A DNA stretch of 64,000 bases from Escherichia coli. GTDB taxonomy: Bacteria; Pseudomonadota; Gammaproteobacteria; Enterobacterales; Enterobacteriaceae. The stretch is taken from the NCBI RefSeq assembly GCF_003334785.1, contig NZ_QOWV01000018.1; one strand, given 5' to 3'. A program made the translations under genes and the position numbers. The number at the start of each line of letters is the position of its first letter. Position 1 is the first letter of the stretch. The notes beneath the pieces were generated by a model. The model did not search any database. It was not told the DNA's origin and saw nothing but the letters and a program-made list of their open reading frames with translations. Shown piece after piece: positions 7,640 to 49,148 of the stretch.

Positions 7640-7822
<183 letters not shown>

Positions 7823-13277: not shown

Positions 13278-15520
<2,243 letters not shown>

Positions 15521-46077: not shown

Positions 46078-47271
46078 ATGACGGAACAAGAAAAAACCTC
46101 CGCCGTGGTTGAAGAGACCAGGGAGGCCGTGGACACCACGTCACAACCTGTCGCAACAGAAAAAAAGAGTAAGAACAATACCGCATTGATTCTCAGCGCG
46201 GTGGCTATCGCTATTGCTCTGGCGGCGGGCATCGGTTTGTATGGCTGGGGTAAACAACAGGCCGTCAATCAGACCGCCACCAGCGATGCCCTGGCTAACC
46301 AACTGACGGCATTGCAAAAAGCCCAGGAGAGCCAAAAAGCCGAGCTGGAAGGCATTATTAAGCAACAAGCTGCACAACTTAAGCAGGCGAATCGTCAGCA
46401 AGAAACGCTGGCAAAACAGTTGGATGAAGTCCAACAAAAGGTCGCCACCATTTCCGGCAGCGATGCTAAAACCTGGCTGCTGGCTCAGGCCGATTTTCTG
46501 GTGAAACTCGCCGGACGGAAGCTGTGGAGCGATCAGGACGTCACGACCGCTGCAGCGTTGCTGAAAAGTGCAGACGCCAGCCTGGCGGATATGAATGACC
46601 CGAGTCTGATTACCGTTCGTCGGGCAATTACCGATGATATCGCCAGCCTTTCTGCAGTATCGCAGGTGGATTATGACGGCATAATCCTTAAGCTTAATCA
46701 GCTTTCAAATCAGGTAGATAACCTGCGTCTGGCCGATAATGACAGCGATGGTTCGCCGATGGATTCAGACGGTGAAGAGCTTTCCAGTTCCATCAGCGAA
46801 TGGCGTATCAATCTGCAAAAAAGCTGGCAGAACTTTATGGACAACTTCATTACGATTCGCCGTCGTGATGACACCGCCGTACCGCTGTTAGCGCCAAATC
46901 AGGATATCTATCTGCGCGAAAATATTCGCTCTCGCCTGCTGGTCGCAGCACAAGCTGTACCGCGTCACCAGGAAGAGACTTATCGCCAGGCGCTGGAGAA
47001 CGTCTCCACCTGGGTACGTGCTTACTACGATACTGATGATGCCACCACCAAAGCGTTCCTCGACGAGGTGGACCAGTTAAGCCAGCAAAATATCTCGATG
47101 GATCTTCCGGAAACCCTGCAAAGCCAGGCGATGCTGGAAAAACTGATGCAGACTCGCGTGCGTAACCTGCTGGCACAACCGGCAGCGGGGACAACGGAAG
47201 CTAAACCTGCACCTGCACCTGCACCTGCACCGCAAGCTGATACTCCGGCAGCCGCGCCGCAAGGAGAATAA
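46078..47271 (+). CDS. hemX: HemX, membrane-anchored coiled-coil protein (397 aa here)
   Basis: ORF 46078..47271; N-terminal transmembrane segment, coiled-coil region, C-terminal Pro-Ala-rich tail containing the (CCTGCA)4 repeat. Confidence 0.9.
47206..47229 (+). repeat. Perfect hexanucleotide tandem repeat (CCTGCA)x4 inside hemX, encoding (Pro-Ala)4
   Basis: cctgca cctgca cctgca cctgca at 47206..47229, in frame, followed by ccg; protein reads [11 protein letters not shown]. Confidence 0.9.
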
Positions 47272-47273
47272 CC

Positions 47274-48470
47274 ATGCTAAAAGTGTTATTGCTCTTTGTG
47301 TTGCTGATTGCGGGGATCGTGGTTGGCCCGATGATTGCCGGCCATCAGGGTTATGTGCTGATCCAGACCGACAACTACAATATCGAAACCAGCGTCACGG
47401 GCCTGGCGATCATATTGATTCTGGCGATGGTAGTGCTGTTTGCCATTGAGTGGCTACTGCGGCGGATCTTCCGCACTGGCGCGCACACCCGTGGGTGGTT
47501 TGTCGGACGTAAGCGTCGCCGTGCACGTAAGCAGACCGAACAGGCGCTGCTGAAACTGGCGGAAGGCGATTATCAGCAAGTTGAAAAGCTGATGGCGAAA
47601 AATGCCGATCACGCGGAACAACCGGTGGTGAACTATCTACTGGCTGCCGAAGCCGCGCAACAACGTGGTGATGAAGCACGCGCCAACCAACATCTGGAAC
47701 GCGCAGCGGAGCTGGCCGGCAACGACACCATTCCGGTAGAAATCACCCGCGTACGTCTGCAACTGGCCCGTAATGAAAACCATGCTGCACGCCACGGCGT
47801 GGATAAGCTGCTGGAAGTTACGCCACGCCATCCGGAAGTATTACGTCTGGCGGAACAGGCGTATATCCGCACAGGTGCATGGAGTTCGCTGCTGGATATT
47901 ATCCCATCAATGGCGAAAGCCCATGTTGGTGATGAAGAACATCGTGCAATGCTGGAACAACAGGCATGGATTGGCCTGATGGATCAGGCGCGTGCCGATA
48001 ACGGTAGCGAAGGTTTGCGTAACTGGTGGAAAAACCAAAGCCGGAAAACGCGTCATCAGGTAGCGTTGCAGGTGGCAATGGCGGAACATCTTATTGAATG
48101 TGACGATCATGATACTGCCCAGCAAATTATCATCGATGGCCTGAAACGCCAGTACGACGATCGCCTACTGCTGCCGATTCCTCGACTGAAAACAAACAAT
48201 CCGGAACAGCTGGAAAAAGTGCTGCGCCAGCAAATCAAAAACGTCGGCGATCGCCCGCTGTTGTGGAGCACACTGGGCCAGTCACTGATGAAGCACGGAG
48301 AATGGCAGGAAGCATCGCTCGCCTTCCGCGCAGCGCTGAAACAACGTCCGGACGCCTACGATTACGCATGGCTTGCCGACGCGCTGGACAGACTGCACAA
48401 GCCGGAAGAAGCTGCAGCGATGCGTCGCGACGGTTTGATGTTAACGTTGCAGAATAACCCGCCACAGTAG
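47274..48470 (+). CDS. hemY: HemY, TPR-containing inner membrane protein (398 aa)
   Basis: ORF 47274..48470; starts 2 nt after the hemX stop; MLKVLLLFVLLIAGIVVGPMIAGHQGYVLIQTDNYNIETSVTGLAIILI. Confidence 0.92.
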   Translation: MLKVLLLFVLLIAGIVVGPMIAGHQGYVLIQTDNYNIETSVTGLAIILILAMVVLFAIEWLLRRIFRTGAHTRGWFVGRKRRRARKQTEQALLKLAEGDYQQVEKLMAKNADHAEQPVVNYLLAAEAAQQRGDEARANQHLERAAELAGNDTIPVEITRVRLQLARNENHAARHGVDKLLEVTPRHPEVLRLAEQAYIRTGAWSSLLDIIPSMAKAHVGDEEHRAMLEQQAWIGLMDQARADNGSEGLRNWWKNQSRKTRHQVALQVAMAEHLIECDDHDTAQQIIIDGLKRQYDDRLLLPIPRLKTNNPEQLEKVLRQQIKNVGDRPLLWSTLGQSLMKHGEWQEASLAFRAALKQRPDAYDYAWLADALDRLHKPEEAAAMRRDGLMLTLQNNPPQ

Positions 48471-48517
48471 TTCCTTCTCACCCGGAGGCAAGCACCTCCG
48501 GGGCCTTCCTGATACAT

Positions 48518-48724
48518 AAAAAAACGCCTGCTCTTATTACGGAGCAGGCGTTAAAACAGGTCTGTATGACAACAAGTGGGTGCTTCACTCAACGTTGTGT
48601 CCATGGTGTCTGATGAGGCATAAGCGACATCTGTCAGTGGACGATAAGCACCGTAAACGGCTCTGCGTCATTCCGGAGTTTATGAGGCACTAAGGCGAAC
48701 ATAAGAGATGGAATGAGCATCTAC
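48518..48724 (-). ncRNA. glmZ: GlmZ small RNA (SraJ/RyiA), post-transcriptional activator of glmS
   Basis: Minus strand reads GUAGAUGCUCAUUCCAUCUCUUAUGUUCGCCUUAGUGCCUCAUAAACUCCGGAAUGACGCAGAGCCG...CAUACAGACCUGUUUUAACGCCUGCUCCGUAAUAAGAGCAGGCGUUUUUUU, which I recognise as GlmZ. It ends in an intrinsic terminator (hairpin gcctgctc-cgtaataa-gagcaggc plus U7), has a -10-like CATAAT just upstream (plus 48731..48736), and sits in the known hemY-aslA intergenic location. Confidence 0.88.
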
Positions 48725-49148
48725 TCGTTTATTATGCCACAGAGAATCGGGAAATAACATCCCTTAACACTTGTTATGAGATAATTCTGTAATCCTCTTT
48801 GCTTCCTGAGTAATAACTTCCTGAGTGAATATTTAACCTGAGCTTGATCCTACACATACTTATTATGAATGATAAAATTCATTCAATTAATAACACATAT
48901 ATTAATTGCCGTTAAAACTAAAAACAGCATCAATAATCAACGCGATATAATAAACCTGCCTTACATATCAACTGCGCCAGAGGTAGGATTGAAAACGCTC
49001 TCCTGATTTTCCAATTCATTTTCTGGATAAATAAATAATTTATTTTTGTCACTATTATTTATGTAATCATCCTGTCAGGGAGAGGGATCTCAATTATCAA
49101 TGCTTAATTACGTCATCATTTTGATGACATGAAACCGGAGCATTTTGC

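Follow-up and report, generated by a model that had tools for sequence, protein, structure and literature searches.

The hemY–aslA intergenic gap of an Escherichia coli genome carries an exact copy of the K-12 small RNA gene glmZ

INTRODUCTION

Is the space between hemY and aslA in E. coli as empty as an ORF track makes it look? In the stretch of DNA analyzed here, which is 64 kb long and is called the window in the following, an earlier sequence-only reading had placed the gene for the small RNA GlmZ in this gap, on the minus strand and hidden from the ORF track. The gap lies where it was described (between the end of hemY at 48470 and the start of aslA at 49149), and the remark on invisibility is fair: only two mechanically called ORFs of 36 and 37 aa overlap the proposed gene, and the sampled RefSeq/PGAP genomes are featureless at this site. 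We conclude, with a probability of about 0.98, that positions 48518–48724 on the minus strand encode GlmZ (SraJ/RyiA), a trans-acting small RNA of E. coli that has its own promoter and terminator, activates glmS and is controlled by RapZ and RNase E. Identity, boundaries, structure, synteny and terminator as well as the location and specificity of the glmS complementarity were computed here, while for promoter activity, the dependence on Hfq, RapZ-directed processing by RNase E and the decoy GlmY we rely on published work with K-12, whose sequence is identical.

RESULTS

A full-length GlmZ match in the K-12 gene order

We scanned the whole 64-kb window with the covariance models of Rfam 15 and found a match of the family RF00083 (GlmZ_SraJ) at 48518–48724 on the minus strand, with 218.4 bits (E = 3.4e-56) against a gathering score of 60 bits. 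The match is untruncated, covering model positions 1–214 of 214, and it was reproduced in a low-threshold scan of 48400–49200 with permissive filters. This second scan also returned SNORA68, Thr_leader (lying on the terminator hairpin) and EF3314_EF3315, which were set aside as sub-threshold chance matches. The gene and its closest neighbors are the following:

48518..48724, minus strand: glmZ, full-length primary transcript of 207 nt, from the Rfam RF00083 match and the identity to MG1655
46078–47271, plus strand: hemX, from the gene order
47274..48470, plus strand: hemY, convergent downstream neighbor of glmZ, a 398-aa ORF with K-12 hemY (b3802) at the same position
49149..50804, plus strand: aslA, divergent upstream neighbor of glmZ, a 551-aa ORF with K-12 aslA (b3801) at the same position

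Throughout, nucleotide n of GlmZ is window position 48725 - n. The gene is convergent with the hemCDXY cluster, hemY and hemX being located directly downstream. Beyond aslA follow aslB on the minus strand and then four tRNA genes, and the order hemX-hemY-glmZ-aslA-aslB is the K-12 arrangement read in reverse.

Alignment to E. coli K-12 MG1655 showed that the 207 nt are verbatim those of positions 3986432–3986638, with 100% identity. Covariance model and alignment, both of which had been proposed as checks in the sequence-only reading, thus agree with its call of GlmZ down to the exact coordinates and the length of 207 nt, and its description of a known rather than a new element is correct: the gene is already known, and the window holds an exact copy of the reference allele. 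The 5' end also coincides with the annotated start of the MG1655 ncRNA glmZ (b4456). The MG1655 feature (NC_000913.3 3986432–3986603), however, comprises 172 nt and ends 35 nt before the terminator, whereas Rfam and the literature give 207 nt, which is the length of the GlmZ primary transcript (PMC4152352). Identity to the 207-nt interval is at least 99.5% in 5,425 of 5,426 complete E. coli genomes, and an 801-nt query around the site finds a match in all 5,426.

Compared to K-12 GlmZ, not only the RNA itself but also the 424-nt aslA–glmZ spacer (48725–49148, promoter included), the terminator, the neighbors and the glmS-pairing site are identical. The window strain itself is not K-12: over 8.1 kb around glmZ the two sequences agree in 99.8% of positions, the differences being five SNPs and 12 bp inserted in hemX. 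All of them lie outside glmZ and the spacer; the difference closest to the gene is a SNP in hemY at 48419. The earlier suggestion that sequence differences in the 3' region could alter regulation is therefore moot for this genome, as RNA, promoter and terminator are those of K-12. From the same identity GlmZ would be expected to be expressed in the window strain, as species of about 207 and about 150 nt. hemX carries a perfect hexamer array (4.5 copies of ACCTGC at 47205–47231) that is longer than in K-12 by two units (12 bp, 47220–47231), so that HemX has 397 aa in the window and 393 aa in K-12, an in-frame length polymorphism.

The sequence-only reading had also stated that no other non-tRNA RNA gene in the window is strongly supported. 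This did not hold, as EsrE and naRNA4 pass the Rfam thresholds as well:

14915–15166, minus strand: Rfam RF02757 (‘Erse’), 319.5 bits over the full model
7692–7769, minus strand: Rfam naRNA4 (nucleoid-associated ncRNA 4, an element of the REP type with paired hairpins), 92.1 bits, gathering score 59.5

The K-12 counterpart of the RF02757 match is the ncRNA esrE (b4707), located within the ubiJ coding sequence at its 3' end.

The paralog that shares a clan with GlmZ has to be considered here. The small RNA GlmY (SroF/Tke1) is a homologous decoy that binds RapZ without pairing to glmS, and an interval encoding GlmY could resemble the one found: clan CL00011 comprises both families, another member of the clan overlapped the GlmZ match with a lower score, and the two RNAs have a common architecture of stem-loop 1 (SL1) and stem-loop 2 (SL2), with 62.7% identity over the aligned positions and 66% in SL1 and SL2 (nt 1–146). 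Nevertheless, the GlmZ model wins the clan competition, the sequence is 100% that of K-12 glmZ, and K-12 glmY, which encodes an RNA of 184 nt, adjoins glrK and sits between glrK and purL, whereas the window locus is linked to hemY. Together with the pairing data given below, we regard the assignment to GlmY as extremely improbable and the assignment to GlmZ as the one that fits the locus.

The stem-loop architecture is kept in evolution

The minimum free energy (MFE) fold of the window GlmZ has -60.8 kcal/mol; of 200 dinucleotide shuffles, 199 fold less stably (z = -3.33). Two large stem-loops precede the linker and the terminator hairpin:

48660..48724, minus strand: SL1 (GlmZ nt 1–65), from the Rfam consensus, the MFE fold and RNAalifold on 40 homologs
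48579..48652, minus strand: SL2, the central stem-loop (GlmZ nt 73–146), from the Rfam consensus, the MFE fold, RNAalifold and covariation

Homologs were collected by searching 100,044 species genomes for an exact 18-nt pattern with 16 specified bases, taken from the 3' arm of SL2. We obtained 120 loci, 101 of which show the conserved GlmZ 5' end 122–143 nt upstream together with a downstream T-run and, as far as listed by title, are Enterobacterales. The 19 remaining loci, without the GlmZ 5' motif, served as negative controls; as far as titles were listed, most of them stem from unrelated phyla (Acidobacteriota, Syntrophomonas, Rothia and others). hemY was found nearby in only two of these controls, which are probably divergent Enterobacterales copies. 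Among GlmZ-like loci with at least 600 nt of room, a convergent hemY lies downstream in 83 of 87, while only 8 of 62 homologous loci with room on the upstream side, which is variable, show an aslA-like gene there. These counts agree with the published synteny, in which glmZ clusters with hemCDXY and the upstream side varies (PMC3045617), and Yersinia and Salmonella glmZ are orthologous RNAs with the hemY linkage seen in the window.

For the alignment, 39 homologs thinned to less than 92% identity were combined with the window to give 40 sequences. Without any prior structure, RNAalifold recovered SL1, SL2 and the terminator as well as a mini-hairpin of 3 bp within the linker, with compensatory double changes at 12 pairs. 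When the Rfam consensus was projected through the window row, 88.0% of the cells can pair, compared to 35–40% when the partners were slid by one to three columns, and none of 500 shuffles reached the covariation score of the Rfam structure or its 82 double-change cells. These values have to be read knowing that many or most of the helix pairs are invariant and hence uninformative, and that selecting homologs by the search pattern necessarily left its columns, in the 3' arm of SL2, without variation. The double changes are concentrated in the terminator (eight pairs) and in SL2 (two at the base and one in the middle helix). The base helix of SL2 is paired in 100% of the cells, with a swap between UA and CG in 17 of 40 sequences; the lower stem of SL1 is paired in all 40, with compensatory UA to CG and CG to UA changes at two pairs. 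For the upper part of SL1 the Rfam register (columns 19–22 and 55–59 of the alignment, GlmZ nt 19–22 with 40–44) is paired in 25.6% of the cells and was set aside, as the pairing of UUAUG with CAUAA (nt 21–25 with 41–45) given by the MFE fold and RNAalifold can form in nearly all sequences. Taken together, the order SL1–SL2–linker–terminator is kept across the homologs.

The same alignment bears on the idea that the interval encodes a small protein, for which two ORFs with GTG starts are present, 48478–48588 on the minus strand (36 aa) and 48580–48693 on the plus strand (37 aa). Across the 40 sequences many indels of 1 or 2 nt fall into the spans of these ORFs, and the substitutions preserve base pairs and not the reading frame. 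Moreover, the minus-strand ORF passes through the terminator hairpin, and neither the K-12 record nor the RefSeq genomes sampled have an annotated CDS that covers the RNA. A ‘hypothetical protein’ annotated in ST131 is an ORF located downstream, whose overlap with glmZ is limited to the final 2 nt of the RNA gene. A coding function is thus exceedingly unlikely, and the changes are those of a structured RNA.

Some strains deviate from the reference allele or its surroundings. Genomes of the ST131 lineage carry the change A104C in GlmZ, in the predicted apical part of SL2 (NZ_CP063774.1, 601–1396), and in NZ_CP063774.1 the ORF of the ‘hypothetical protein’, with 196 aa, runs from the end of the glmZ terminator in place of the short spacer that precedes hemY in the window. 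In E. coli Res13-Lact-PEB21-38-A (NZ_CP062851.1, 598–1701) an IS1A element replaces most of aslA, the glmZ promoter and GlmZ nt 1–6, which makes this glmZ a natural promoter-less and 5'-truncated allele. In E. coli strain H1, an IS1B is present inside the 801-nt interval that surrounds glmZ.

Promoter and terminator delimit an independent transcription unit

Upstream and downstream of the RNA we located the signals that are listed here:

48736..48731, minus strand: sigma-70 -10 hexamer CATAAT (-12..-7), within an extended -10 element at 48731..48739, by direct reading
48755..48760, minus strand: candidate -35 hexamer ATGTTA (-36..-31), matching TTGACA in 3 of 6 positions with an 18-nt spacer
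48518..48552, minus strand: intrinsic terminator (SL3), from a terminator scan and an inverted repeat (I1)

The -10 hexamer CATAAT and the intrinsic terminator named in the sequence-only reading were thus both found on the minus strand. The 5' end of glmZ at 48724 is located 7 nt downstream of CATAAT, and a TG at -15/-14 (48739 and 48738) directly precedes the hexamer; by our own reading the two may form an extended -10. The best candidate for the -35 appears to be ATGTTA. A generic scan for the sigma-70 consensus, which demands at least four of six matches in each hexamer, did not report the glmZ promoter, because the candidate -35 matches in only three positions. On the identical K-12 sequence, Göpel et al. 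assayed promoter activity by lacZ fusions and observed that the region upstream of -40 is dispensable while a cut to -20 abolishes expression, that mutating three -35 consensus bases lowers expression drastically and that mutating the right half of the -10 abolishes it (PMC3045617). A candidate with three consensus bases agrees with these data.

According to the same study, GlrR and sigma-54 are without effect on K-12 glmZ, which is not bound by GlrR and is transcribed from a single constitutive sigma-70 promoter, whereas the glmZ promoters of Yersinia and Salmonella have a sigma-54 -24/-12 element and three GlrR sites (PMC3045617). Searching for a -24/-12 element upstream of the window glmZ, we found no GG at -24/-25. 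A TGGCA at -15..-11 was rejected as a sigma-54 site, being merely a -12-like half that overlaps the -10. The absence of the element is in line with the literature, according to which E. coli has lost the control by sigma-54 (PMC3045617). Further upstream, in the AT-rich spacer between aslA and glmZ, we noticed a direct repeat with a 15/16-nt unit (CTTCCTGAGTGAATAA, 1.9 copies) at 48802–48831, about -78 to -107 from glmZ. It may belong to the control of aslA, since this region is dispensable for the glmZ promoter (PMC3045617).

The terminator consists of an 11-bp stem with seven G-C pairs and an 8-nt loop (48552–48523), followed by seven T ending at 48518, and between genera, double changes that restore the pairing are seen at 8 of the 11 pairs. 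A second hairpin, a perfect GC-rich one of 8 bp with a 6-nt loop (CCCGGAGG / CCTCCGGG) and without a T-run, was observed at 48481–48502, 11 nt past the hemY stop. It is probably the 3'-end hairpin of hemY and distinct from the glmZ terminator, which follows 20 nt further on.

Could the conserved interval be a cis element instead, either a 3' UTR or bidirectional terminator of hemY or regulatory DNA upstream of aslA? The terminator hairpin is only 47 nt away from the hemY stop, hemY and glmZ converge, and the generic scan gave no sigma-70 consensus for glmZ. However, the full-length model of the 207-nt RNA matches on the strand opposite to hemY, which has the GC-rich hairpin at 48481–48502 of its own. 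The promoter sequence is the one that drives the lacZ fusions and loses activity when -35 or -10 is mutated (PMC3045617), and the conservation over 207 nt with structure-preserving changes extends to genera that have no aslA upstream. For K-12, a discrete transcript beginning at the base that corresponds to 48724 has been published. We thus consider a cis element very improbable. With a detected terminator and a promoter identical to the one dissected in K-12, glmZ presents itself as an independent transcription unit.

The linker is complementary to the glmS leader

For the interaction with the target we used a windowed scan that combines the duplex energy with the cost of opening both RNAs, the target being the intergenic region between glmU and glmS of K-12. 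The following two features fall into the linker:

48556..48575, minus strand: glmS-pairing site in the SL2–SL3 linker (GlmZ nt 150–169), from the accessibility-corrected pairing scan against the K-12 glmS leader
48570..48574, minus strand: approximate zone of RapZ-directed RNase E cleavage (GlmZ nt ~151–155), inside helix A of the pairing site, taken solely from the literature

The best interaction joins GlmZ nt 150–169 with glmS -40..-22 by 8 + 7 bp, with a duplex energy of -19.2 and a net energy of -8.9 kcal/mol; on the side of GlmZ it is made up of helix A (UUGUUGUC), a 5-nt internal loop and helix B (GACCUGU). Two of 69 dinucleotide shuffles of GlmZ match the real pairing energy (z = -1.8), so that the value is only modestly unusual. 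For GlmY (-4.2 kcal/mol) and for GlmZ nt 1–151 (-4.7 kcal/mol) the best interaction with the glmS leader is weaker and lies elsewhere. Thus, a linker complementary to the glmS anti-Shine-Dalgarno arm is present in the window RNA, absent from GlmY and lost on processing. The computation supports the location of the site and the specificity of GlmZ compared to GlmY, and should be taken as support and not as proof of an interaction. The site agrees with the published one, in which 15 nt between SL2 and SL3 pair with glmS -41..-19 in an Hfq-dependent manner, as proven with compensatory mutations (PMC4152352), and in this respect the pairing with the glmS mRNA ascribed to GlmZ in the earlier reading is upheld. 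An RNAduplex calculation with full-length GlmZ and the glmS leader was discarded: it yielded end-to-end pseudo-duplexes, 476 of 500 shuffles scored better, and GlmY scored better than GlmZ. It is meaningless here because its design ignores intramolecular structure.

In the predicted fold of the glmS leader, a helix forms between -35..-28 and the segment -15..-6 immediately in front of the start codon. The arm that would mask the ribosome-binding region is thus overlapped by the GlmZ target. Across the 40 Enterobacterales sequences helix B is conserved to 93% and helix A to 79%, compared to 34–50% for the adjacent unpaired bases. In Providencia, Proteus, Morganella and Moellerella (eight loci: L007, L018, L022, L031, L039, L063, L076 and L116), helix A is without UGUU and the linker is longer and U-rich (alignment columns 186–193), so that their interaction with glmS may be shorter or displaced.

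The mini-hairpin of the linker joins G155-U156-C157 with G163-A164-C165 (window 48561–48570). It is part of the Rfam consensus and is paired in 96.7% of the cells over the 40 homologs, among which we saw no compensatory double change at these pairs (155–157/163–165). The reviews considered here describe the linker region only as single-stranded. One could imagine a small switch in which the mini-hairpin keeps the site for glmS pairing and RNase E partly covered, thereby shifting the balance between Hfq/glmS pairing and RapZ/RNase E cleavage. We consider such a role unlikely: it has the conservation in its favor, and the same bases are constrained by the glmS pairing anyway.

DISCUSSION

With the locus assigned to glmZ, the known biology of the K-12 RNA can be mapped onto the window as a proposed mechanism. 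The gene would be transcribed from its own sigma-70 promoter with a weak -35 and an extended -10, and transcription would end at the intrinsic terminator, giving a 207-nt RNA composed of two 5' stem-loops, a linker of about 26 nt and the terminator hairpin. Assisted by Hfq, linker nt 150–169 would pair with glmS at the 5' arm of a hairpin in which the ribosome-binding site is hidden, and the opened site would allow more of the GlcN6P synthase GlmS to be made. When GlcN6P is plentiful, RapZ bound to the 5' stem-loops would direct RNase E to cut at about nt 151–155, inside the pairing site, leaving GlmZ inactive. When GlcN6P is scarce, the paralog GlmY would sequester RapZ, and full-length GlmZ would accumulate.

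The control by RapZ, RNase E and the GlmY decoy is known from the identical K-12 RNA (PMC4152352, PMC6602413). The processed form has been given as about 151 nt (PMC4152352) and, as GlmZ*, as nt 1–155, with cleavage taking place 6–7 nt downstream of SL2 whatever the sequence (PMC6602413). Chimeras made of the first two stem-loops bind RapZ, which identifies SL1 and SL2 as the RapZ-binding part (PMC6602413).

GlmZ is among the best-characterized small RNAs of the enterobacteria, and the discovery value of one more identical copy is small. It is for annotation that the locus is useful: ORF-based tracks miss the gene, the sampled RefSeq/PGAP E. coli genomes are featureless there, and the MG1655 record has it 35 nt too short. 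A pass with covariance models is needed to label glmZ; otherwise the 678-nt gap between hemY and aslA looks empty.
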